Below, piece after piece: positions 81 through 10,302 of a DNA stretch of 10,830 nucleotides. The stretch is from the NCBI GenBank assembly GCA_043825875.1, contig JBDRRF010000102.1, forward strand, positions 1-10,830, written 5' to 3'. Source of the stretch: Pseudomonadota bacterium. GTDB taxonomy: Bacteria; Desulfobacterota; Desulfobacteria; Desulfobacterales; RPRI01. Numbering within the stretch: position 1 is the stretch's first letter; each line of letters starts with the position of its first letter. Position numbers and translations under genes: made by a program. The notes under the pieces were generated by a model. That model did not search any database. It was not told where the DNA came from and saw only the letters and a program-made list of their open reading frames with translations.

Positions 81-208
81 ACTTAACATCGCAGTGCAGT
101 CGACAGCCGGGGCCGGGGCGTTTTTGCACGTTTGTTCAAGACTTGTAAATCGATATCTTTTTAATATGTTGGTGGAGGCCCCGGCTGCCACTGACCGCAG
201 CGTTATGT
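81..208 (+). repeat. attC site 1 (128 bp)
   Basis: R'' ACTTAAC 81-87, R' GTTATGT 202-208; arms GCAGTGCAGTCGACAGCCGGGGCC / GGCCCCGGCTGCCACTGACCGC pair with extrahelical bases. Confidence 0.92.
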
Positions 209-241
209 GAACAATAAAATTTGGAAATAAGTGAATTGCAT

Positions 242-658
242 ATGAATAAATCAGAGTTAGAAAAACTGGTGGAAATCAGAGTACAAGAGGCAGATATACT
301 CTTGAAGTCAAAATGTTTTCAAGGTGCATATTATTTGATTGGATATGCGCTCGAATGTGCATTTAAAGCTTGTATTTCAAAACAAGTTAAAGCGTTTGAT
401 TTTCCAGATAAACAACTTGCAAATGCAAGCCACACCCATAAACTTTCTGAATTAGTTGGTGTGGCGGGATTAAAGCAAAAGTTGAATGAACAAGAAAAAC
501 AAGATGAAAATTTCAAATTAAATTGGGCAGTGGCTAAAGATTGGTCTGAAGTTTCCAGATATGAATGTATTGTCGAAGAAAATAAAGCAAATGATCTTTA
601 TAAAGCAACTACAGATAACGAATCAGGGATATTAGCATGGCTAAAGAAATATTGGTAA
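242..658 (+). CDS. HEPN-domain protein (cassette 1, gene A)
   Basis: HEPN-type pattern: 'EADILL...GAYYLIGYALECAFKA', 'HTHKLSEL', C-terminal 'WSEVSRY'. ATG 242 preferred over TTG 221 (same frame). Confidence 0.8.
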   Translation: MNKSELEKLVEIRVQEADILLKSKCFQGAYYLIGYALECAFKACISKQVKAFDFPDKQLANASHTHKLSELVGVAGLKQKLNEQEKQDENFKLNWAVAKDWSEVSRYECIVEENKANDLYKATTDNESGILAWLKKYW

Positions 659-1050
659 CAGAACTGCTCTCTGAGCAGATGGTTTCGGCAGGGGCTGATT
701 TATTAAAAAAGTTAGACGATTCTTCTTGTCGTGTTAAAGCTGCTTTTTGGATGTTTTTGCCTGAGGAAAAGACCTGGAAATTTATTTTAGCTTCGCCTCT
801 GGTAAAAGAAGAAGGGCCTAGAAAGTATTACAAACGTATAGTTGATGCGAGCAAGGATACAGGGACTGAGGATAATATTATTTCTTTAAATGATATTAGC
901 GTACTAAGTGTCGATGATCAACTCATTCAGTTACTCAAATTTGCTATATCAACTGGCGAATCGATTTCTAACATAAGGTTTTCAAAAAACACTATAAATG
1001 GCGTCTTTATCGACGACACTCACATTTACAGAATGAACGTCAACACATAA
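637..1050 (+). CDS. Hypothetical protein, overlapping partner of the HEPN gene (cassette 1, gene B)
   Basis: 137 aa; overlaps the HEPN gene by 22 nt; its stop TAA lies inside R'' ACATAAC. Alpha/beta pattern 'VKAAFWMF...WKFILASPLV..EGP'. Confidence 0.8.
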   Translation: MAKEILVTELLSEQMVSAGADLLKKLDDSSCRVKAAFWMFLPEEKTWKFILASPLVKEEGPRKYYKRIVDASKDTGTEDNIISLNDISVLSVDDQLIQLLKFAISTGESISNIRFSKNTINGVFIDDTHIYRMNVNT

Positions 1051-1172
1051 CAAAATAATTGAGCAGATGCCTAAAGCAGTTGCGTTTTGAAATGTTTTAC
1101 TATTTACAAATTTATTTAATGTTTTGATCATTTGTGCCATTTAACCGGCACTGCTCATTATTGGCGTTGGCG
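1045..1172 (+). repeat. attC site 2 (128 bp)
   Basis: R'' ACATAAC 1045-1051, R' GTTGGCG 1166-1172; arms AATAATTGAGCAGATGCC / GGCACTGCTCATTATT. Confidence 0.92.
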
Positions 1173-1180
1173 GAGAGAAA

Positions 1181-1639
1181 ATGAAACATTCCCGGAACAT
1201 CATCCGCATAGACCACGAGGCAAGCCGAACCTACGGATGGCGAGTTACGCTGCAACGAAAGGGCAAAATCATCGTCAAGACTTTCTCTGATGGCGTCTAT
1301 GGAGGAAAGCGAAAGGCATTGAAAGCAGCTGTGGAATATAGAAACTCACTTCTCCTTAAGCACTCGTCTTATGAACATCAAATTTGGGTCCGGGCTCGTC
1401 TTCGCAGAAACAATACATCTGGCATTCCTGGTGTTGGCCGATATGAGGTTCTCGCCAATCTCAACACTGGCCGCCGAGAAGCATTCTGGCTCGCTTCATG
1501 GACTAATGAAGATGGTGTCGGTCGTAAGCGAAAATTTTCCGTTTTGTGTTACGGCGAACGCCAAGCAAAACGACTTGCCATAGCAGAGCGTAACCGTCAG
1601 ACGTTACGTGTATGCGCTATCAAGTCTTCCAAGCCGTAA
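1181..1639 (+). CDS. AP2-domain DNA-binding protein with two AP2-like units (cassette 2)
   Basis: GGAGAG RBS; 'NNTSGIPGV' AP2 signature; two repeats of the type W-x-V/A...K-x-FS...YG...A..AA/LA...R; very basic. Confidence 0.8.
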   Translation: MKHSRNIIRIDHEASRTYGWRVTLQRKGKIIVKTFSDGVYGGKRKALKAAVEYRNSLLLKHSSYEHQIWVRARLRRNNTSGIPGVGRYEVLANLNTGRREAFWLASWTNEDGVGRKRKFSVLCYGERQAKRLAIAERNRQTLRVCAIKSSKP

Positions 1640-1725
1640 TGCCAACAAACGGGTCGAGCAGACTGGAACTCGTCACGTTTTTAAATGCTGTTTGGGTGGC
1701 CAGTCTGCTCACCCTTACGTTCGGC
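1640..1725 (+). repeat. attC site 3 (86 bp)
   Basis: R'' TGCCAAC 1640-1646, R' GTTCGGC 1719-1725; arms GGGTCGAGCAGACTGG / CCAGTCTGCTCACCC. Confidence 0.92.
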
Positions 1726-1749
1726 AACAAACGAAAGGAGCCATACATT

Positions 1750-2415
1750 ATGAGCAAGACATGTACTGACTGCGGCGCAGACTACGGATTGAATGAGCGT
1801 CGTTGTCCCAATTGCGGGAGCACCAATTTCGTCGGAGGGGCGTCGTCAGCAGACGACATTGACAAGCTTTTTGCTCAGTTTGACAGTGAATCCGTCCAAC
1901 TGACAAACCAAGGAACACGCGCCTTCAACAGCGGAAACTTCGATGAGGCAATCCGTTGCAGTAAGAAGGCAATCAAGTTAGATCCAAATGAAGCAAGAGC
2001 ATATGGGACACTCGGACTTGCCTTGGCGCAGAAGGGTAATACTGCCGAGGCAATAACCAACTTGGAGAAGGCGCTAAGCATTGACAGTTCCCTTGATCCG
2101 CTCAAGACAGTTCTAAGTCAATTGAAGGCCGCTGGCGGACAAGGTTCGACATCGGCGGCCGGACAAAAAGACGGTAGCGGGTGCTTTGTCGCCACGGCGT
2201 GCTACGGCTCGTACGAGGCGCCCGAGGTCAAGGCTCTGCGGGCGTTTCGAGACAAACGCTTGTTGCCGTCCCCCATAGGCGCGATCTTGGTGCGCGCTTA
2301 TTATCGCATCTCTCCGCCCATTGCAAGTGCATTGCGCTCTCGGCCTTGGGCAAGGCGACTTGTGAAACGGTTTCTAATTGATCCAGTCGTCATGATTGTA
2401 GGAACTAAACGGTAG
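1750..2415 (+). CDS. Zinc-ribbon + TPR + CFI-box-CTERM-like protein (cassette 3)
   Basis: AAGGAG RBS 1735-1740, ATG 1750 (ORF-track start 1612 lies upstream of the attC). CxxC...CPNCG ribbon; TPR 'FDEAIRCSKKAIKLDPNEARAYGTLG'; C-terminal 'GCFVATACYGSYEAPEVKALRAFRD...YYRISPPIA'. Confidence 0.85.
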   Translation: MSKTCTDCGADYGLNERRCPNCGSTNFVGGASSADDIDKLFAQFDSESVQLTNQGTRAFNSGNFDEAIRCSKKAIKLDPNEARAYGTLGLALAQKGNTAEAITNLEKALSIDSSLDPLKTVLSQLKAAGGQGSTSAAGQKDGSGCFVATACYGSYEAPEVKALRAFRDKRLLPSPIGAILVRAYYRISPPIASALRSRPWARRLVKRFLIDPVVMIVGTKR

Positions 2416-2421
2416 CAGTCT

Positions 2422-2838
2422 ATGCCGAACAAGGCGCTTCACTGGACGGGGATTCCGCTGCGCTCCATCCCGCCAGTGAGCTTGGTCGTTAACGAGATAA
2501 AAATAAATAAACACATTTCAATTATTACGAACTGTCAGGCACTTCAACCATACCTAAATTCTGATATTCCGGATGGAGTAAAAATTACTTCTCCTCCGCC
2601 TCGTGAAAAACGAGGACTTGATTTTAATATAACTGTCAATCTTGATATCCAGCTTGTGATTGATTTAACAAAAATAACAGCAACCGCTTTAGCTGCCTGG
2701 ATCGTAAAGAAATCACTTGCTATGAAAGGAAATCATCGCGTCAATATCAATGGTAAGCAAATTTCCGTTGATGGCCCCAAAGCCATAGATCTTATAACAA
2801 ATGAAATCGAGGAGAAAAAGAATGATCAGAATATATAA
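2422..2838 (+). CDS. Hypothetical protein (cassette 4); start uncertain
   Basis: Long open frame filling the cassette with protein-like composition. The only upstream in-frame ATG (2422) precedes the attC; inside the cassette 5' end only ATA/ATT codons occur (~2497-2525). Confidence 0.6.
   Translation: MPNKALHWTGIPLRSIPPVSLVVNEIKINKHISIITNCQALQPYLNSDIPDGVKITSPPPREKRGLDFNITVNLDIQLVIDLTKITATALAAWIVKKSLAMKGNHRVNINGKQISVDGPKAIDLITNEIEEKKNDQNI
2424..2494 (+). repeat. attC site 4 (71 bp)
   Basis: R'' GCCGAAC 2424-2430, R' GTTAACG 2488-2494; arms GCTTCACTGGACGGG / CCCGCCAGTGAGC. Confidence 0.92.
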
Positions 2839-2887
2839 TATTATTTTACTTTTTTTGCTCATAAATCACCAAATGTATTATATTTTT

Positions 2888-2974
2888 CGTTAACAAATCA
2901 ATTAACCCAACACCGAGTAAGTAACGTTTTCAATCCATTAACGGCGGCGGTGTGGGTTATTTCCACCGTTAGAA
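2888..2974 (+). repeat. attC site 5 (87 bp)
   Basis: R'' CGTTAAC 2888-2894, R' GTTAGAA 2968-2974; arms AATTAACCCAACACCG / CGGTGTGGGTTATT. Confidence 0.9.
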
Positions 2975-2982
2975 ATGATAGC

Positions 2983-3564
2983 ATGATAGAAATTCAGAAT
3001 TTCACAAGTGTAGATTTAGATGAGAGTGATCGTCCGCTGCCTATAGCTGCCGGTAGTCGCTATCAAAGCGATTATATGCAACTTGCTTTTGATGGCAAAG
3101 TTGTGATCCCAAAGATTTTAGGCTGCACTATTGAAGCCCAGTATAAAACTTCAACTGGCCACTACATCCTTTTCATTGAATTAGGTTGGGAGAACCTCTT
3201 GATTTATCTAATCGACGAAAGCTTTCAGTTATTGGAAAAAACTGGACTTAGCTACTCGACTTGCGATGGCTCCTTTGCTTTGCCAGAGACCGTAAATGAA
3301 AATACGGTTCACTTCACCTTTTACACTGACGAACGCTGGAGTCTGACATTTCATCCCCATAACAAGCGAATTAAAACACTCGATTTTGCAGTGATATATC
3401 CAGGCGATAGACCAGAGGGGACATTATGCCATTTGGAATTAGTCGAAGTTGTCCCCGGTTCTCATAGAAAGATTTCTAACCAGGGCTTGCAGGGGACGCG
3501 AAACAGCAATGTGCTGTCGCGTTTAATTCAGTGGGTCACAGCCTTTTTACCGTCGCGCCCCTAA
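2983..3564 (+). CDS. Hypothetical beta-rich protein (cassette 5); reads through its attC
   Basis: ATG 2983 is the first in-frame start inside the cassette; stop 3562-3564 lies in the right arm of attC 6. Confidence 0.7.
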   Translation: MIEIQNFTSVDLDESDRPLPIAAGSRYQSDYMQLAFDGKVVIPKILGCTIEAQYKTSTGHYILFIELGWENLLIYLIDESFQLLEKTGLSYSTCDGSFALPETVNENTVHFTFYTDERWSLTFHPHNKRIKTLDFAVIYPGDRPEGTLCHLELVEVVPGSHRKISNQGLQGTRNSNVLSRLIQWVTAFLPSRP

Positions 3565-3579
3565 AGCCCGTCGTTATCT
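3474..3579 (+). repeat. attC site 6 (106 bp)
   Basis: R'' TTCTAAC 3474-3480, R' GTTATCT 3573-3579; arms GGGCTTGCAGGGGACGCGA / TCGCGCCCCTAAAGCCC. Confidence 0.92.
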
Positions 3580-3623
3580 ATAATTAATTTAAACTTCAAT
3601 CCAAAATTAGTAGACAAGTCATT

Positions 3624-3974
3624 GTGAATGGTGAAAAGAAATTTCAGAAAATTTGGGACTTTGGAGCAAGAGGTATAATATCCATATTTTATGGGACAAC
3701 CTTTTTAATTCTATTTGTATTATTAGAAACTGGAATATTTATTATATCTAATTCCATTTTTGAAATTGATATAGTCCAAAAAATAGACTTATCGTATAAC
3801 CAAAACCCTATTGGTCTTATTGCGATATTATTTATTCTCTTAAATATTCTAACTATATTCATAGGATTGGCATTTGGGTTTATTGGCTCGAATCAAATTA
3901 TTGCATATTTAAATAAGTTGAAAAAACCACTATTTCAACTTTTGAAAAGAATCATGCCTAAAACAATAGAATAG
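3624..3974 (+). CDS. Hypothetical membrane protein, two predicted TM segments (cassette 6)
   Basis: 116-aa ORF filling the cassette; two long hydrophobic stretches; stop abuts R''. Confidence 0.7.
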   Translation: MNGEKKFQKIWDFGARGIISIFYGTTFLILFVLLETGIFIISNSIFEIDIVQKIDLSYNQNPIGLIAILFILLNILTIFIGLAFGFIGSNQIIAYLNKLKKPLFQLLKRIMPKTIE

Positions 3975-4031
3975 ATAACAAATCGCCGTTAGGGACGCAA
4001 AAACCCGCGCCCTAAGGCTCAAACGTTATGT
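3973..4031 (+). repeat. attC site 7 (59 bp)
   Basis: R'' AGATAAC 3973-3979, R' GTTATGT 4025-4031; arms GCCGTTAGGGACGC / GCGCCCTAAGGC. Confidence 0.92.
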
Positions 4032-4061
4032 TTGACTTATAAATTTAAATAACCACTAAAA

Positions 4062-4553
4062 ATGAAAACATACTGTATATCAAAAGAAATTAGAGGACTA
4101 ATATTGTTCTCTGCAATTGTATCGACATTATATTTACTTTTTGGGGGCACCCTCCGCCGAGAGCTTGTGTTTATAATAGCTATATTATCTTGGGGCAGTT
4201 TTTTATTTCAAACTTACAAGATCGAAATAATAGATGATAAAACAATCCGGTTTAAAAAAATTATAAGGACGATTGAAGTTAAGATCGAAGACATAATTTT
4301 GCTGTCAGAACATTGGAAATACGACATCATCCATTACAAGGGTGGAAAAGTATACATAGATCCTTTTACAGATAATTTACAGAGATTAAAATCTACATTA
4401 AATAATTTAAATCCAAAAATCGATTTTAAGGACGCTGTACTTGAAAATCCTATTAAAACGGGAAGTCCTTTAGGATTATTTTTATCTTTTGTTTTGATAT
4501 TAATCTTCTGGGGTATCGTATTGTATTATACGATAACCAGATTGTTTTTATGA
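4062..4553 (+). CDS. Hypothetical membrane protein (2 TM + possible bacterial PH-like beta domain + C-terminal TM) (cassette 7)
   Basis: Hydrophobic N-terminal pair, then 'YKIEIIDDKTIRFKKIIRTIEVKIEDI' beta pattern, then a C-terminal hydrophobic helix. Confidence 0.7.
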   Translation: MKTYCISKEIRGLILFSAIVSTLYLLFGGTLRRELVFIIAILSWGSFLFQTYKIEIIDDKTIRFKKIIRTIEVKIEDIILLSEHWKYDIIHYKGGKVYIDPFTDNLQRLKSTLNNLNPKIDFKDAVLENPIKTGSPLGLFLSFVLILIFWGIVLYYTITRLFL

Positions 4554-4564
4554 TCCACATTAAA

Positions 4565-4669
4565 ACATAACATCCGCCTGGAGTAGACGGCTGGAAAATC
4601 GCGATTTATCGTAAAATGCTGTGGTAGTCCGACCTATGTCAGGGCCGCCACTCAGGCGGGGCGTTATAC
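4565..4669 (+). repeat. attC site 8 (105 bp)
   Basis: R'' ACATAAC 4565-4571, R' GTTATAC 4663-4669; arms CCGCCTGGAGTAGACGGC / GCCGCCACTCAGGCGG. Confidence 0.92.
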
Positions 4670-4678
4670 GTCAAAAAA

Positions 4679-5074
4679 ATGAATACTGAAGCCGCAGAAA
4701 TACTAGCCAGCGCATTAGAACAAGATGCCTCTGACCAAGAATCGGGGAAAATCAAAGACCTTGGTATGAGGTATGATGAAGTTGAAAATCAATTGCTACC
4801 GATCGAAGAAGATATAAACAAACCAATATACGGCCTGGCCTTCATTTTCTGGGACGACTGGTGTGATGCCGCAAATCATGAATGGCAATATCATGAACCC
4901 ATAAAACCAAATGAGTGGCCGATATTCGCGAGAGAAATAGCTGCTTCATTGCGCGCGGGTGTACTACCAACAAACCCAAAAATTATTGAAAATTTTTACC
5001 CGAAACCAAAGGTAAGTCTATTCAACAGAATTAAGGCATGGTTTTCAGAGAGTAATAACAAGAAAAACGTATAA
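4679..5074 (+). CDS. Hypothetical acidic helical protein (cassette 8)
   Basis: 131-aa ORF; stop TAA inside R'' GTATAAC; 'FWDDWCDAANHEW' motif; no family recognised. Confidence 0.75.
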   Translation: MNTEAAEILASALEQDASDQESGKIKDLGMRYDEVENQLLPIEEDINKPIYGLAFIFWDDWCDAANHEWQYHEPIKPNEWPIFAREIAASLRAGVLPTNPKIIENFYPKPKVSLFNRIKAWFSESNNKKNV

Positions 5075-5137
5075 CAAAAAAATCAAGCGGGACTGTAAAA
5101 CCTGCGGTTTTTCAGCCCCTTATTTTAAACGTTATGT
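5069..5137 (+). repeat. attC site 9 (69 bp)
   Basis: R'' GTATAAC 5069-5075, R' GTTATGT 5131-5137; arms AAAATCAAGCGGGACTG / CAGCCCCTTATTTT. Confidence 0.9.
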
Positions 5138-5156
5138 TTGAACGGGTTATAGAAGA

Positions 5157-5561
5157 ATGACAAAAAATAAAATCATTTGGCTAATATCGATAGTCCTTAT
5201 ACTTAATGGTATCTATCAGATTTATGCGAATTTAAATATGCTATGGATTTCCAACGGTACACATTTAATTCTTAATTTTTTATGTGCATTTGGCCTTTTA
5301 TTTGAAAAATCATGGTCTCAGCATTACGTATATGTTTTGTCTTTCTTTTCAATAGGAGGCTGGTTTGATGGCGTTATCAATGTTTATAGAAATGGGTGGC
5401 CCTATAGTACAATCGAAGAGTCGATTATTTCATTAATCCCTGGCTTATGTTTAATAGCAGGGTGGTTTTTATTATCTGTATATACAGTAAGACTGAAAAG
5501 AATGAAAAGGGACAGGCAAATTATGCTTGACACTCCCATTGCTTGTGCTAAAGAAGCATGA
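5157..5561 (+). CDS. Hypothetical 4-TM membrane protein (cassette 9; attC missing, C-terminus possibly foreign)
   Basis: Four hydrophobic segments; no cognate ACATAAC R'' box found downstream; last codons overlap the transposase leader. Confidence 0.7.
   Translation: MTKNKIIWLISIVLILNGIYQIYANLNMLWISNGTHLILNFLCAFGLLFEKSWSQHYVYVLSFFSIGGWFDGVINVYRNGWPYSTIEESIISLIPGLCLIAGWFLLSVYTVRLKRMKRDRQIMLDTPIACAKEA
5527..5554 (+). promoter_or_regulatory. Possible sigma70 promoter of the transposase
   Basis: TTGACA 5527-5532, 16-bp spacer ending TGC, weak -10 TAAAGA; AGGAG RBS before ATG 5590. Confidence 0.35.
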
Positions 5562-5589
5562 AAACTAATTTATAAACTCAGGAGTTCAT

Positions 5590-6525
5590 ATGCCAAGAAT
5601 CGCAAGAATGATAGTACCTGATCAAAAAGCCGTATATCATGTGATGTCACGAACCGCTTTGGATGGGTATCCGTTTAGTGATGTTGATAAAGATAAACTT
5701 GTTGATATCATCAAACATCTGAGCAAAATTTATTTTACCGATATTCTTGGTTATTGCATCATGGGCAATCATTTCCATTTGTTGGTTCGGATGTTTCCTG
5801 AAACATATAAAAGTGATGAAGAAGTAAAGAAACGCTATATTCTTTATTACGGCGATGATAAATGCTTTTCCGTCGAGTCCATTTCCAGATACAGAACAAA
5901 ATGGTCCAGCCTGTCCGAGTTTATGCGTGAGATAAAACAAACTTTTTCAAGAAATTTTAATAAACACCGTAATCGCAAAGGAACTCTCTGGGCGGATCGG
6001 TATAAGAGCGTAATTGTTGAAAACGGCAACACCCTTATCCATTGTCTGGCATATATTGATTTAAATCCAGTACGTGCCGGAATAGTAGAAAAGCCTGAAG
6101 ATTACCGTTGGAACTCAATCGGCTACCATATGCAAACCGGCAACAAAGACAAATTTCTGTCCTGGGATTTCGGTTTAAAAGAATTCGGAATATTAGATAA
6201 TAAAAAGCGGCTGGTCAGATACAGAAAATATGTCTATGAAGCCGGGGCAATTGACAGGTCTGAACAAAAAAACAGAAAGACTATTCCTGCCGGCATCTTG
6301 AATAAAGAACGAAAGCGGTCATATGAGATATGCCGCATGGATAGGTTTCTTTCCCGCACCCGTTATTTTACGGATTCGGGTATTATAGGCAGCAAAGCAT
6401 TTGTAACCGGTTTATACCTGCAATTTAAATCTTATTTCATTTCAGTTAATGAAAAAACACCCAAAAGCATCACCGGCCTTGATGGCATATATTCTCTTAA
6501 GCGGCTTACAGATAATATATCCTGA
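5590..6525 (+). CDS. HUH/Y1 transposase, REP-associated tyrosine transposase (RAYT)-like, IS200/IS605 superfamily
   Basis: 'MPRIAR...YHVMSR', HUH 'YCIMGNHFHLL', 'GTLWADRYKS', catalytic Tyr helix 'YIDLNPVRAGIVEKPEDYRWNS'; intact 311 aa with C-terminal extension. Confidence 0.92.
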   Translation: MPRIARMIVPDQKAVYHVMSRTALDGYPFSDVDKDKLVDIIKHLSKIYFTDILGYCIMGNHFHLLVRMFPETYKSDEEVKKRYILYYGDDKCFSVESISRYRTKWSSLSEFMREIKQTFSRNFNKHRNRKGTLWADRYKSVIVENGNTLIHCLAYIDLNPVRAGIVEKPEDYRWNSIGYHMQTGNKDKFLSWDFGLKEFGILDNKKRLVRYRKYVYEAGAIDRSEQKNRKTIPAGILNKERKRSYEICRMDRFLSRTRYFTDSGIIGSKAFVTGLYLQFKSYFISVNEKTPKSITGLDGIYSLKRLTDNIS

Positions 6526-6588
6526 ATCGCTCTGCCGTTTCCAAAGCTTTCACCTTAGCACAGAGTTTCATAGATTTGGTTACGTATT

Positions 6589-6665
6589 TGTCATTTCGAA
6601 CATAGTGAGAAATCTTAATGGATATTAGAACCGGTATAAGATATCTTCCTTCGGTCGAAATGACA
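6589..6665. repeat. 77-bp palindromic REP-like element
   Basis: Perfect 11-bp terminal IR TGTCATTTCGA / TCGAAATGACA and inner imperfect IR GAGAAATCTTA / TAAGATATCTT. Confidence 0.75.
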
Positions 6666-6917
6666 CCATGGGGGAAAATAAGGAACAGTCGAATTATTTC
6701 TCTTTATCATTATCATACCAGCACACAGACCGGCCATTAATTCTTTTATAAATGTTGTTTGAGGGATAATGGTCGATTCTTTTTTGACAGGCTTAACACG
6801 TAAACCCTGTCTGATAAGTTTTTTGTAGTTGGTGCAAAGAACAAGATTGAAGCTCCCCGCTGCAAGCATCGAGGAATTCGCTCGCTGTTGCGGTTTGCAA
6901 TAAAAATATTTTACAAT

Positions 6918-6960
6918 TAATATTGAATATTCGGATTGACATTCCGAATATTCAATATTA
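6918..6960. repeat. Perfect 18-bp inverted repeat with 7-nt loop
   Basis: TAATATTGAATATTCGGA - TTGACAT - TCCGAATATTCAATATTA. Confidence 0.85.
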
Positions 6961-7349
6961 TCAGGGGCCACTTTGGGGCCACCCTATATATTTTTTACCA
7001 ATTAAAAGCCTCATAATATAAGAGTCACATGCCAAGAAAAGCATGTATAGATGCATTGCCAGCAATACTTCGTATCATTATTGAGCGTAGGATATTTTTG
7101 AAAGCGAATCCGACTGCAATGGTTTTCTGAACTGGTTTTTATAGTTTTTAGCCAAAATACAAAAGTAAGGGTGACGCCTATAATTTTATTCGTTTGTTCT
7201 ATCATCCCAGGTTATTTTCGCTTTTACATTTAGAGAAAATTATAATAGCATAGGCACCTCAATCATTAGATATAATGTGAAGGCTGGCCGGCATCATTGG
7301 CTTGAATGCCATGGCAATTATGGCAGGATTTGGTCAAAAGCATAATATG

Positions 7350-7491
7350 GAGCCAGTTTCAAAACGCCCCATTTTGGCCGATCTCTGCGTTGGGCTCAAA
7401 TTTCAATCCTCGAAATACTTAATGTATTCCTGTGGTTGATATTTTCTCCCGCCTTGAGCTTGACCAAACTGAAACGTTTTGAAAGTGGCTC
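7350..7491. mobile_element. MITE-like element (142 bp)
   Basis: 17-bp terminal IRs with one mismatch (GAGCCAGTTTCAAAACG / CGTTTTGAAAGTGGCTC); flanking direct repeat TATG at 7346-7349 and 7492-7495; non-coding. Confidence 0.75.
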
Positions 7492-7506
7492 TATGTTTTG
7501 TATAAT
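7479..7506 (+). promoter_or_regulatory. Putative sigma70 promoter for the AIM24-family gene
   Basis: TTGAAA 7479-7484, 16 bp, TATAAT 7501-7506; 38 nt upstream of ATG 7545. Confidence 0.55.
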
Positions 7507-7544
7507 TGGTGTCTGAAACATAAAAAAAGCAGGGGGGTTTTTAT

Positions 7545-8333
7545 ATGAAATGTCATGAAGTTGATTATGAAATCCATGGTGATGATATGCAAATCGTGGA
7601 AGTGGAGCTTGATCCGGGTGAGACTGTTATAGCTGAAGCAGGCGCCATGAACTGGATGGAAGAAGGTATTAGCTTTGAAGCCAAAATGGGTGATGGCTCC
7701 AATCCGGATAAAGGTTTTATGGGAAAGTTGCTTGATGTCGGCAAACGGGCATTGGTCGGTGAATCGTTATTTATGACCCACTTTACCAATACCGGGAGTG
7801 GTAAAAAACGCGTTGCATTCGGGGCACCTTATCCCGGGAAAATCATTGCACTCGATATGGGTAAAATCGGTGGGGAACTCATCTGCCAGAAAGATGCGTT
7901 TTTGTGTGCAGCCCTGGGAACGGAAATAAGTATAGCCTTTACCAAACGCCTGGGAACAGGTTTTTTTGGGGGTGAAGGATTTATATTACAACGCCTGCGA
8001 GGCGACGGGATGATGTTTGTCCATGCAGGCGGCATGATCGTGGAAAAGGAACTGAATGGTGAAATCTTAAGGGTGGATACCGGATGTATTGTCGGGTTTA
8101 CCCCCGGTATAGACTACGATATTGAACGTGCCGGCAACCTGAAATCCATGTTTTTTGGCGGTGAAGGTTTGTTTTTAGCCACTTTGCAGGGAAAGGGGAA
8201 AATTTATCTTCAGAGCCTGCCATTCTCACGCATGGCTGACCGTATTATTCAGCATGCACCTGCCAAAGGCGGTAAAGCCGTTGGCGAAGGTTCCGTTTTA
8301 GGCGGGCTTGGCCGGTTCCTTGACGGTGATTGA
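7545..8333 (+). CDS. TIGR00266 / AIM24 family protein
   Basis: '[28 protein letters not shown]', 'GESLFMTHF', 'CQKDAFLCA', repeated 'FFGGEG' motifs, '[13 protein letters not shown]'. Confidence 0.92.
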
Positions 8334-8423
8334 TCCTGTTGACAGGCCGCAGCCGGTTTCGATAGATAAAAAATTAAGTATCAGAAAAAGGAATAAAGAG
8401 TCTTGTAAAGCTGGAGAGAAAAA

Positions 8424-9500
8424 GTGACAAAAAGCATTATAAAAGAAAAATTAAAGCAGAAAATATATAATGGTGACAGAATTACACCAGATGAAGCTTG
8501 CAATCTTTTTGCATGGGATTTGATAGAACTTGGCGAAGCGGGCAACATGAGAAGAAAGCTGATTTCGCCAAAAGAAGAAGTTGGCTTTATTATTGATCGC
8601 ATAATCAATTATACAAACATTTGCGAAGCGGCATGTAATTTTTGCGCATATCACGCAAGGGCAAATTTAATAAAACCTTACGAACTTTCACCTAATGAAA
8701 TTCTGGATAAGATCAAAGAGCTGGTCTTAATAAACGGCTCCCAGGTTATGTTGCAAGGCGGGCTCCACCCCGATTATACTCTTAATAAATATCTATCTAT
8801 GGTGAAAAACGTAAAAAAGCACTTTCCGCAAATATACCTTCATTCGTTTTCACCCAGTGAAATCTTTCACATATCAATAAAAAGTTCTGTTTCAATAGAT
8901 GAAGTAGTATCAGAATTAAAAGCTGCCGGCTTGGATTCCGTGCCTGGCGCATCTGACTTGCTGGTAGACAGGATACGTTCCAAGGTTAGTCCAAATAAAG
9001 CAAGCAAAGAACAATGGCGTGGGGTGGTATTTGCCTTACACCGCCACAATATGAAATCTTCTGCCACAATGACTTACGGTATGGGCGAAACCGAAGAAGA
9101 AAAAATCGAACATCTGAATTTCTTGCGAGATATTCAGGATGAAACGGGTATATTCAGGGCTTTTATTCCCTGGTCATTTTCTCCGGCAAATACCAGGCTG
9201 CAAGATATTGAGCCTGCAACCGGCATAGATTATCTGAAAATAGTTGCAATAGGCCGCATTTTTCTTGATAATATCAAATACATTCAGGCCGGATGGCTAA
9301 CCGAAGGGCTGAAAACCGCACAAATTGCTCTTACTATGGGAGCAAATGACATGGGCGGTGTTCTGATGGAAGAAACAGTAGTAAAGGCCACCGGCATTGA
9401 AACTACAGCAGGCATAGAAGAATTTATTGATATTATAAAAAACACAGGTAAAACCCCGGTATTAAGAGATTCTGAATATAATATTTTAAAAAGATATTAA
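8424..9500 (+). CDS. mqnC: Cyclic dehypoxanthine futalosine synthase (CofH/MqnC radical SAM)
   Basis: 'DRIINYTNICEAACNFC' CxxxCxxC, 'LQGGLHP', 'HSFSPSEI', 'ATMTYG', 'AFIPWSF', 'IQAGWLTEG', 'GANDMGG'; directly upstream of mqnD. Confidence 0.85.
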   Translation: MTKSIIKEKLKQKIYNGDRITPDEACNLFAWDLIELGEAGNMRRKLISPKEEVGFIIDRIINYTNICEAACNFCAYHARANLIKPYELSPNEILDKIKELVLINGSQVMLQGGLHPDYTLNKYLSMVKNVKKHFPQIYLHSFSPSEIFHISIKSSVSIDEVVSELKAAGLDSVPGASDLLVDRIRSKVSPNKASKEQWRGVVFALHRHNMKSSATMTYGMGETEEEKIEHLNFLRDIQDETGIFRAFIPWSFSPANTRLQDIEPATGIDYLKIVAIGRIFLDNIKYIQAGWLTEGLKTAQIALTMGANDMGGVLMEETVVKATGIETTAGIEEFIDIIKNTGKTPVLRDSEYNILKRY

Positions 9501-9501
9501 A

Positions 9502-10302
9502 ATGACAAATCTATCCATAGCCTTTTCACCGTGCCCGAATGACACATTCATATTTGATGCAATGCTTCATGATCGCATAGATACTTTGGGATATAATTTT
9601 CTTTTGCACATTGATGATGTTGAAACGCTTAACATTGCCGCTTTTCAAAACACATATCAAATCACAAAACTTTCATTTTATGCATATCTTCTATTAAAAA
9701 AGCATTATACGCTTTTAGATTCTGGGGCGGCTCTTGGCTTTGGATGTGGTCCTCTTCTGGTGTCAGGCAAAAAGCATCAGTTTTCAGAAACTTCTAAAAT
9801 TGCAATCCCCGGCAATTATACTACTGCTTTTCTTCTTTTAAAACTCTGGAATCCTGAAATCAAAAATATAGTTATAACCGGATTTGATCAGATTCTGCCG
9901 GGAATACAAAGCGGTGAATATGACGCGGGTCTTATTATTCACGAAGGAAGATTTATTTATCCTGATTATGATTGCATAAAAATTATAGATCTTGGGCAGT
10001 GGTGGGAAAAAGAAACAAAGCTTCCCATACCGCTTGGTTGCATTGCAATCAGAAATGACCAGGCTACAATCGTTCATAAAAGCCAAATTGAACTTCTGAT
10101 AAGAAATTCCATAATCCATGCAAGAAGCAACAGAGATGATTCTCTCTCTTTTATACTGGATCATGCCCAGGAAATGGATAGAAAAGTAGTAGATGAGCAC
10201 ATCAATCTTTATGTTAATGATTTTAGCATATCATTAGGAGAAGCCGGAAGAAATGCTATTAATGCTTTAGAGGAAATGGCCAGGTGGAAAAAAATCATTT
10301 AA
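9502..10302 (+). CDS. mqnD: 1,4-dihydroxy-6-naphthoate synthase
   Basis: 'FSPCPNDTFIF', 'DVETLN', 'GAALGFGCGPLLV', 'IIHEGRF', 'DLGQWW...LPIPLG', 'HINLYVN'. Confidence 0.95.
   Translation: MTNLSIAFSPCPNDTFIFDAMLHDRIDTLGYNFLLHIDDVETLNIAAFQNTYQITKLSFYAYLLLKKHYTLLDSGAALGFGCGPLLVSGKKHQFSETSKIAIPGNYTTAFLLLKLWNPEIKNIVITGFDQILPGIQSGEYDAGLIIHEGRFIYPDYDCIKIIDLGQWWEKETKLPIPLGCIAIRNDQATIVHKSQIELLIRNSIIHARSNRDDSLSFILDHAQEMDRKVVDEHINLYVNDFSISLGEAGRNAINALEEMARWKKII

Follow-up and report, generated by a model that had tools for sequence, protein, structure and literature searches.

The stretch of DNA analysed here (the window, 10,830 nucleotides) is the entire contig C102 of genome G000. It carries an array of integron gene cassettes that runs, on one strand, into the gene for a Y1 HUH transposase. 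Its features are, from left to right:

81-208, plus strand: attC 1, closing a cassette whose end is common to contig C75 (a collapsed duplicate)
203-5137, plus strand: eight complete gene cassettes, mean 616 bp
1045-1172, 1640-1725, 2424-2494 and 2888-2974, plus strand: attC sites of cassettes 1-4
3474-3579, 3973-4031, 4565-4669 and 5069-5137, plus strand: attC sites of cassettes 5-8
5131-5508, plus strand: cassette 9, truncated and without attC; R' GTTATGT, then a membrane-protein ORF
5157-5561, plus strand: the cassette 9 ORF, 134 aa, which crosses the junction and takes a new C-terminus and stop from the transposase leader
5494-5509, plus strand: purine-rich linker in which 7 bp are directly duplicated (5494-5500 / 5503-5509), a feature seen at further left ends in the family
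5509-5532, plus strand: left terminal repeat (TIR), family consensus (A/G)GGGACAGG(C/T)AAAT(T/A)ATGCTTGAC
5590-6525, plus strand: Y1 HUH transposase of the TIRYT type, 311 aa, with H61-F-H63, Y155-IDL-NP and a helical insertion at residues 76-105
6550-6667, strand unassigned: dispersed, TGTC-tagged repeat of about 115 bp that holds a palindrome
7029-7118, plus strand: decayed start of a second RAYT-like gene, similar on visual comparison to the C79 and C83 protein N-termini; too weak for the search thresholds, and without a Pfam match
7350-9887, plus strand: chromosomal flank with a repeat of about 142 bp, a TIGR00266/AIM24-like gene, an mqnC-like gene and the start of a menaquinone-biosynthesis gene

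The array, the transposase and their surroundings

A hairpin detector and BLAST against an attC library locate nine attC sites between 81 and 5137, all on the plus strand. The detector is a purpose-written heuristic which, combined with BLAST, missed at least one attC visible by eye (at L166); the attC counts given below come from these two. The sites have the R''/L''/L'/R' anatomy of an integron array, with matching cassette cores: the starting R' and closing R'' of cassettes 1-8 agree at 7/7 bases in seven cassettes and at 6/7 in one, as is expected of cassettes built by IntI. Genome G000 has four intI genes; this contig has none of them, and no attI. Contigs C51, which bears intI, and C25 finish in the same 135 bp, which begin a cassette with an R' complementary to the R'' at position 81 of the window. 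Because of this match, the array probably continues to an integrase on another contig through a join that is not assembled. Contig C75 begins with the same sequence as the window. A contig of one sequencing run spans 4000-7375 without differences; the run is possibly the source of the window DNA, so this contig does not count as independent support. No RNA run is listed as containing the sequence. As to cassette contents, cassette 1 (221-1050) holds two overlapping ORFs without a Pfam match, which we take to resemble a HEPN-type toxin-antitoxin pair; cassette 2 (1181-1639) encodes an AP2-domain protein, and cassette 3 (1750-2415) a Zn-ribbon/TPR protein with a CFI-box C-terminal domain.

The initial annotation described a ninth cassette that starts normally and never closes, and both points are borne out. 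GTTATGT stands at 5131-5137, ACATAAC occurs only at 1045 and 4565, and neither the hairpin detector nor the library BLAST finds a confident attC in the window beyond 5137. The cassette ORF does run on into the transposase leader. It matches two intact database proteins (120 and 122 aa) up to residue 110 (base 5486) and then diverges. Since the homologue at L103 directly follows an attC that ends in GTTATGT, inside an array, cassette 9 is, judged from its homologues, a true cassette that lacks its last ten or so codons and its attC. An uninterrupted homologue, which the annotation had hoped for, thus exists as two full-length proteins, but not with its attC: the L103 contig ends within the ORF, and the full-length proteins come without DNA. 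A search of 300 other genomes of the phylum for cassette 9 gave one weak match only.

The transposase was correctly annotated as intact and co-oriented with the array. The protein has 311 residues and matches PF01797, and H61, H63 and Y155, all kept here, are invariant across 26 aligned proteins. The description as a RAYT-like HUH enzyme holds for the Y1 HUH motifs and for the fold. In Foldseek, a predicted model (mean pLDDT 67) matches the solved E. coli RAYT 4ER8 best, and IS200 TnpA is also matched. The model has helices at residues 76-87 and 95-105 after a strand at 61-68, and a 9-residue loop (22-30) in the beta1-alphaA region. The gene is, however, that of a TIR-associated Y1 transposase (TIRYT) and not of a REP-associated RAYT: it scores 69.3 bits against the NF047646 cut-off of 80, below the RAYT threshold, and it has TIR-type ends and no cognate REP family. 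It is single-copy in G000, and its relatives are mostly from Desulfobacterota (among the best 80 of 597 matches, our clade set). The viral collection searched holds no relative, and Rfam returned two sub-threshold miRNA matches only.

Downstream, the 77-bp palindrome at 6589-6665, which starts 63 bp after the transposase stop, is present as annotated and folds with a z of -3.4. It is not part of the transposase unit. It belongs to the unrelated TGTC repeat of about 115 bp, which has 22 copies in G000, and only the window's copy lies near a Y1 gene; its motif was found downstream of none of 83 homologue loci. The same counts led us to reject it as the REP of this transposase. It is a separate repeat that had no part in forming the junction. 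With TGTC tags at both outer ends, dispersed copies and no link to a Y1 family, it resembles the CGTC/TGTC REP dimers (four published families), which the available part of PMC3733652 reports as lacking a dedicated transposase.

Further right, a near-perfect 21-bp inverted repeat lies at 6918-6960, upstream of the decayed RAYT-like start. The locus seems once to have held two RAYT-like elements. The element of about 142 bp at 7350-7491 is an inverted repeat with well over 200 copies in G000, often at contig ends, and is MITE- or REPIN-like.

Ends of the transposase family

The join between cassette and transposase leader can be placed only to 5487-5508, just 5' of GGGACAGGC, which is confirmed at 5509-5517. 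The annotation read this motif as a switch into the promoter and ribosome-binding site of the transposase gene. The motif is where it was said to be, but a sigma-70 scan calls no promoter at the leader TTGACA, the -35-like hexamer (5527-5532) formed by the last TIR bases. A conserved element boundary near 5509, also proposed there, emerges clearly when upstream flanks are aligned: GGGACAGG precedes the start codon at 62/86 of the homologue loci listed, compared with 8/211 control windows (one locus, L105, duplicated another and was dropped from the counts). By this comparison of sequences, the GGGACAGG at 5509 is where the transposase family has its conserved left end, and the junction is therefore not that of a random deletion. 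Two close homologues resemble the window only from about 5505 on, and a third did not align there; DNA outside the end motif is hypervariable between loci. The window's left end fits the GGGGWSAS core at 7/8 positions.

An inverted copy of the end motif lies downstream of the gene at 28/84 of the homologue loci listed (19/192 in controls), and the TIR also occurs as solo copies. The window itself has no inverted TIR downstream of the gene, the best 22-mer match having 9 mismatches. It carries a single TIR and no right end: a TIRYT-type gene with one element end, which falls short of a complete TIRtron.

These ends bear on the reading in which the transposase gene is a long-standing resident, the array was fused to it by deletion or host recombination independent of the enzyme, and the conserved motif is a selected promoter region. 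In support, the gene is single-copy in G000, the motif runs into the conserved -35-like hexamer, and in the congener G011 a remnant of the window's transposase gene, without an array, precedes the same AIM24-like gene by about 1 kb. Against it, the motif recurs inverted downstream of the gene and as solo copies, and tandem duplications cluster there. In the congener G008 the flank 7350-9887 is collinear, with neither array nor transposase upstream, yet 82%-identical copies of the transposase lie on other contigs. We regard such a fusion to a resident gene as improbable.

The duplications in question are short and direct. They occur at 14/64 ends of the family against 5/215 control positions, and the window has one. 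Four of the 14 end exactly after GGGAC, a hint at the cut site. At the left ends of L024-L102, the 10-15 nt outside the GGGAC core are strongly A-rich in otherwise unrelated flanks.

Where the family's ends have joined other DNA, they rarely disrupt long reading frames: the junction falls inside an open frame of at least 100 codons at 3/50 loci, compared with 31/47 control positions. The DNA that has been cut includes IS3-like and IS21-like elements (names from reading the ORFs), ordinary genes and cassette DNA in mid-ORF. We tried three further properties of the ends and rejected each. A conserved hairpin inside the TIR shows no covariation beyond shuffled alignments; the small hairpin in the window's end folds at a z of -1.0, likewise without covariation, and so differs from the subterminal hairpins of IS200/IS605. 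A target-site duplication is not apparent, repeats of 6-7 nt occurring in 8/64 elements and of 6-8 nt in 20/400 swapped pairs, at no fixed position; a 4-nt repeat surrounds L184, a single case. Junction DNA, finally, folds no better than controls (p=0.27), which speaks against a hairpin preference at junctions.

TIRYT genes beside attC sites

Within G000, a co-oriented attC lies within about 1 kb of 6/20 RAYT-like genes or remnants (5/19 without the window). The corresponding figure for IS200-type loci is 0/5, and a uniform model, too generous a null for mobile DNA, predicts about 1.3%. Across genomes, among the matches listed, an attC lies within 4 kb of 5/80 members of this clade, 6/60 other long TIRYTs and 5/48 IS200 TnpA genes, and at 11/300 random windows of integron-rich G000. 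For this comparison 11, 5 and 2 loci with less than 3 kb of flank were dropped, as were six control loci that were not IS200-like (0/6 had attC). The TIRYT and IS200 lists were the best 150 matches each, beyond which lie 224 and 307 more. TIRYTs taken together (11/140) do not differ from IS200 (5/48) at this distance (p=0.56); their attC sites show a tendency to lie nearer (8/140 and 0/48 within 1.2 kb, p=0.21), again among the matches listed. Among 28 TIR-pattern loci in other genomes, none has a confident attC within 1.5 kb, and one has an opposite-strand call at 12.8. In the flanks examined, no intact attC is called near the closest homologues (81-83% identity). At L104 there is an attC-like remnant downstream, interrupted by what we take to be an intron. 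Across genomes, the enrichment near attC that the annotation proposed to look for among homologues does not exceed the level of IS200.

Two other comparisons point toward the arrays. Among 59 intI loci chosen regardless of Y1 genes, and excluding L202, L203 and the G000 loci, seven bear a TIRYT gene or its remnant on the side of the array (463 kb surveyed), and the opposite side (230 kb surveyed) has none (p about 0.06). Among the matches listed, attC sites near TIRYTs are co-oriented in 10 cases and opposite in 1 (p=0.012); for IS200 the ratio is 4:1. Related genomes contribute loci that do not count as independent, and the frequent breaks of draft assemblies at arrays depress every rate. The link between RAYTs and integrons proposed in the annotation therefore survives in part: RAYT-like genes are over-represented and co-oriented beside arrays in G000, but across genomes TIRYTs lie near attC no more often than IS200. 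The association is real but loose.

Some individual loci are suggestive. On visual reading, L184 is preceded at its left end by a 5' attC arm and followed at its right end by the complementary 3' arm, and L098 has R'' and a spacer on the left and the 3' half of an attC on the right; from these sequences, each of the two appears to be an element lodged in a single attC. In L093 the cut falls within an attC, the right end of L102 is followed by a 3' attC half, and the joins of L071, L102, C97 and L166 come no more than about 90 nt after R', all but the L102 right end being judged by eye. One could imagine that TIRYTs loosely prefer folded attC hairpins, insert into or beside them on a single strand and thereby wear arrays down. 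The attC halves at the ends of L184, L098, L093 and L102, the joins near R', the six G000 loci, all co-oriented, and the 10:1 orientation elsewhere would fit such a preference. Yet the break positions differ from case to case, several of the cases come from one genus (Desulfoluna), and 129/140 of the loci listed have no attC within 4 kb, a rate equal to that of IS200. The rejoined L184 site is not called by the detector and folds weakly (z -0.8 to -1.1), junction DNA as a whole folds like controls, and the window's own junction lies in a cassette ORF, not in an attC. We consider a loose attC preference possible but doubtful. The annotation's suggestion that the transposase targets or processes attC hairpins fares no better, there being no excess over IS200 and ends that also cut IS-like elements and ordinary genes.

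Several further loci deserve mention in their own right. At G000:C103:638-870 (L351), a solo TIR of the window's type stands 9 nt past the stop codon of an ORF that resembles a cassette gene, and behind it come a decayed attC-like hairpin and then a cassette whose core matches; L351 is a possible second attC replacement in G000. At L104, L114, G000:C83:71450-71580 and G000:C109:44000-44600, one short motif lies between the downstream side of the TIRYT and an attC-like remnant, and is presumably the 5' end of a group IIC-attC intron. At C75, a 3' end like that of a group II intron takes the place of the left end. On the minus strand of G000:C17:2370-2150, another TIRYT has its right end directly against a truncated fragment that we assume to be Rhs-core-like. 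In a less common layout, at L277 (G083:C2), L284 and L303, the attC lies beyond the far side of intI, on the intI strand.

A different idea in the annotation was that the transposase captures or mobilises cassette arrays independently of IntI; it would do so, for cassettes or whole arrays, through its end repeats. Arrays that share a duplicated cassette (C102 and C75) and the integron of C79 do run into a TIRYT, and at G085:C45:133881-140150 (L292) direct TIR copies flank intI and an array, with tandem TIRs preceding an intact clade member. But the window has one TIR and no right end, its cassette cores are of the IntI type, G000 has four intI genes, and we saw no cassette moved between TIRs. 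The three array-ending enzymes are, besides, only 27% identical to the window protein in pairwise matches. We consider capture of this kind highly improbable.

Known elements and the origin of the junction

The window's element is closest to the TIRtrons, whose TIRYT genes have terminal repeats fitting GGGGWSAS at a set distance upstream, repeats that also occur solo (Di Nocera, De Gregorio and Rocco, 2013, PMC3733652, available in part). It shares with them the RAYT-like Y1 enzyme with HUH and catalytic tyrosine, the upstream repeat at a conserved distance (7/8 of GGGGWSAS) and the solo repeats; unlike complete TIRtrons as described there, it has no right TIR. The accessible text of that paper contains no mention that we found of integrons, end duplications or truncated neighbours.

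Within the Y1 transposases, the protein probably belongs to TnpA-Y1 subclass 2.3, an assignment based on the published description. According to the available part of that description (Quentin et al., 2018, PMC6006769, 10.1101/279083), the likeness extends to length (311 aa, median 325), the beta3-alphaC insertion, Y---NP, a conserved serine after the tyrosine, a long C-terminal tail and the lack of REP hairpins. For the beta1-alphaA insertion that the description also lists, the loop at 22-30 is a candidate at most. Subclass 2.3 is nested in 2.1 and prevails in Chromatiales and Alteromonadales; the relatives found here are, by contrast, mostly from Desulfobacterota, and terminal repeats do not figure in the part of the description available (PMC6006769). 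With RAYT/TnpA-REP enzymes and their REPINs the protein shares the 4ER8 fold and a single copy per genome (Bertels et al., 2017, 10.1101/119735, available in part). It differs from IS200/IS605 transposases in its 311-aa length and the lack of conserved subterminal hairpins.

Two classes of mobile element seek out attC sites: most copies of IS1111-attC elements and of group IIC-attC introns target attC at a defined position. TIRYTs resemble them as mobile elements in or beside attC with a fixed orientation, but only a small minority lie near attC (11/140 of those listed, within 4 kb) and their break points vary. It is tempting to see TIRYTs as a third such class, one that would join GGGAC/GGGGTC-tagged ends to folded attC on one strand, delete outward, cap or dismantle arrays and cut them off from their integrase; we think this unlikely. 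That a cassette array can end at an HUH element has a precedent in ISHahl1, an IS605-group element directly downstream of a CALIN, for which CALIN mobilisation was speculated (PMC7923331, available in part). That precedent is one case only, of an IS605 element that has TnpB and hairpin ends, and comes, as far as the available text goes, without a survey or test. A paper tying RAYTs or TIRYTs to attC was not found in the literature searched, which leaves most subscription journals outside its coverage, nor did the portions available yield a report of tested activity for any TIRYT. The element type is thus named but little studied, and its loose association with integron arrays is, as far as searched, unpublished.

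The reading we favour, with modest confidence, is that the array ends at a TIRYT left end, and that this end removed the last codons of cassette 9 and its attC by cutting and rejoining single-stranded DNA. Nicking and rejoining of this sort are part of Y1 chemistry. By analogy with IS200 elements and RAYTs, the enzyme would nick single-stranded DNA either at its GGGAC-tagged end or immediately outside it. The nicked end could then be joined to new DNA, by insertion or by one-ended adjacent deletion, and this may happen repeatedly. The joins that survive are almost always those at gene ends or between genes, and within a cassette array the space between genes amounts to the attC sites and their margins.

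Strand bias may supply the orientation. Most TIRYT genes sit on the strand whose flanks show a positive GC skew (41:18 and 26:8). IS200 elements are oriented with the replication fork, as the available part of PMC3971601 reports. A similar bias of TIRYTs could yield co-orientation with arrays; the skew beyond intI, a short-flank measure confounded by gene direction, is positive for 4 arrays and negative for 10, and does not confirm this account. Joins at gene ends, strand bias and the dispensability of cassettes would together be likely to lead to co-oriented accumulation beside arrays without specific recognition of attC. TIRYTs probably do not recognise attC specifically.

The family now has a defined end sequence that can be tested, and a hot junction marked by duplications. 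Integron arrays are cut short or broken up by a TIRYT end again and again, in one orientation. Should the enzyme have a preference for attC, it would provide an HUH route to integron decay and to arrays without an integrase; if it has no such preference, the TIRYT end would still be a useful marker of array erosion.
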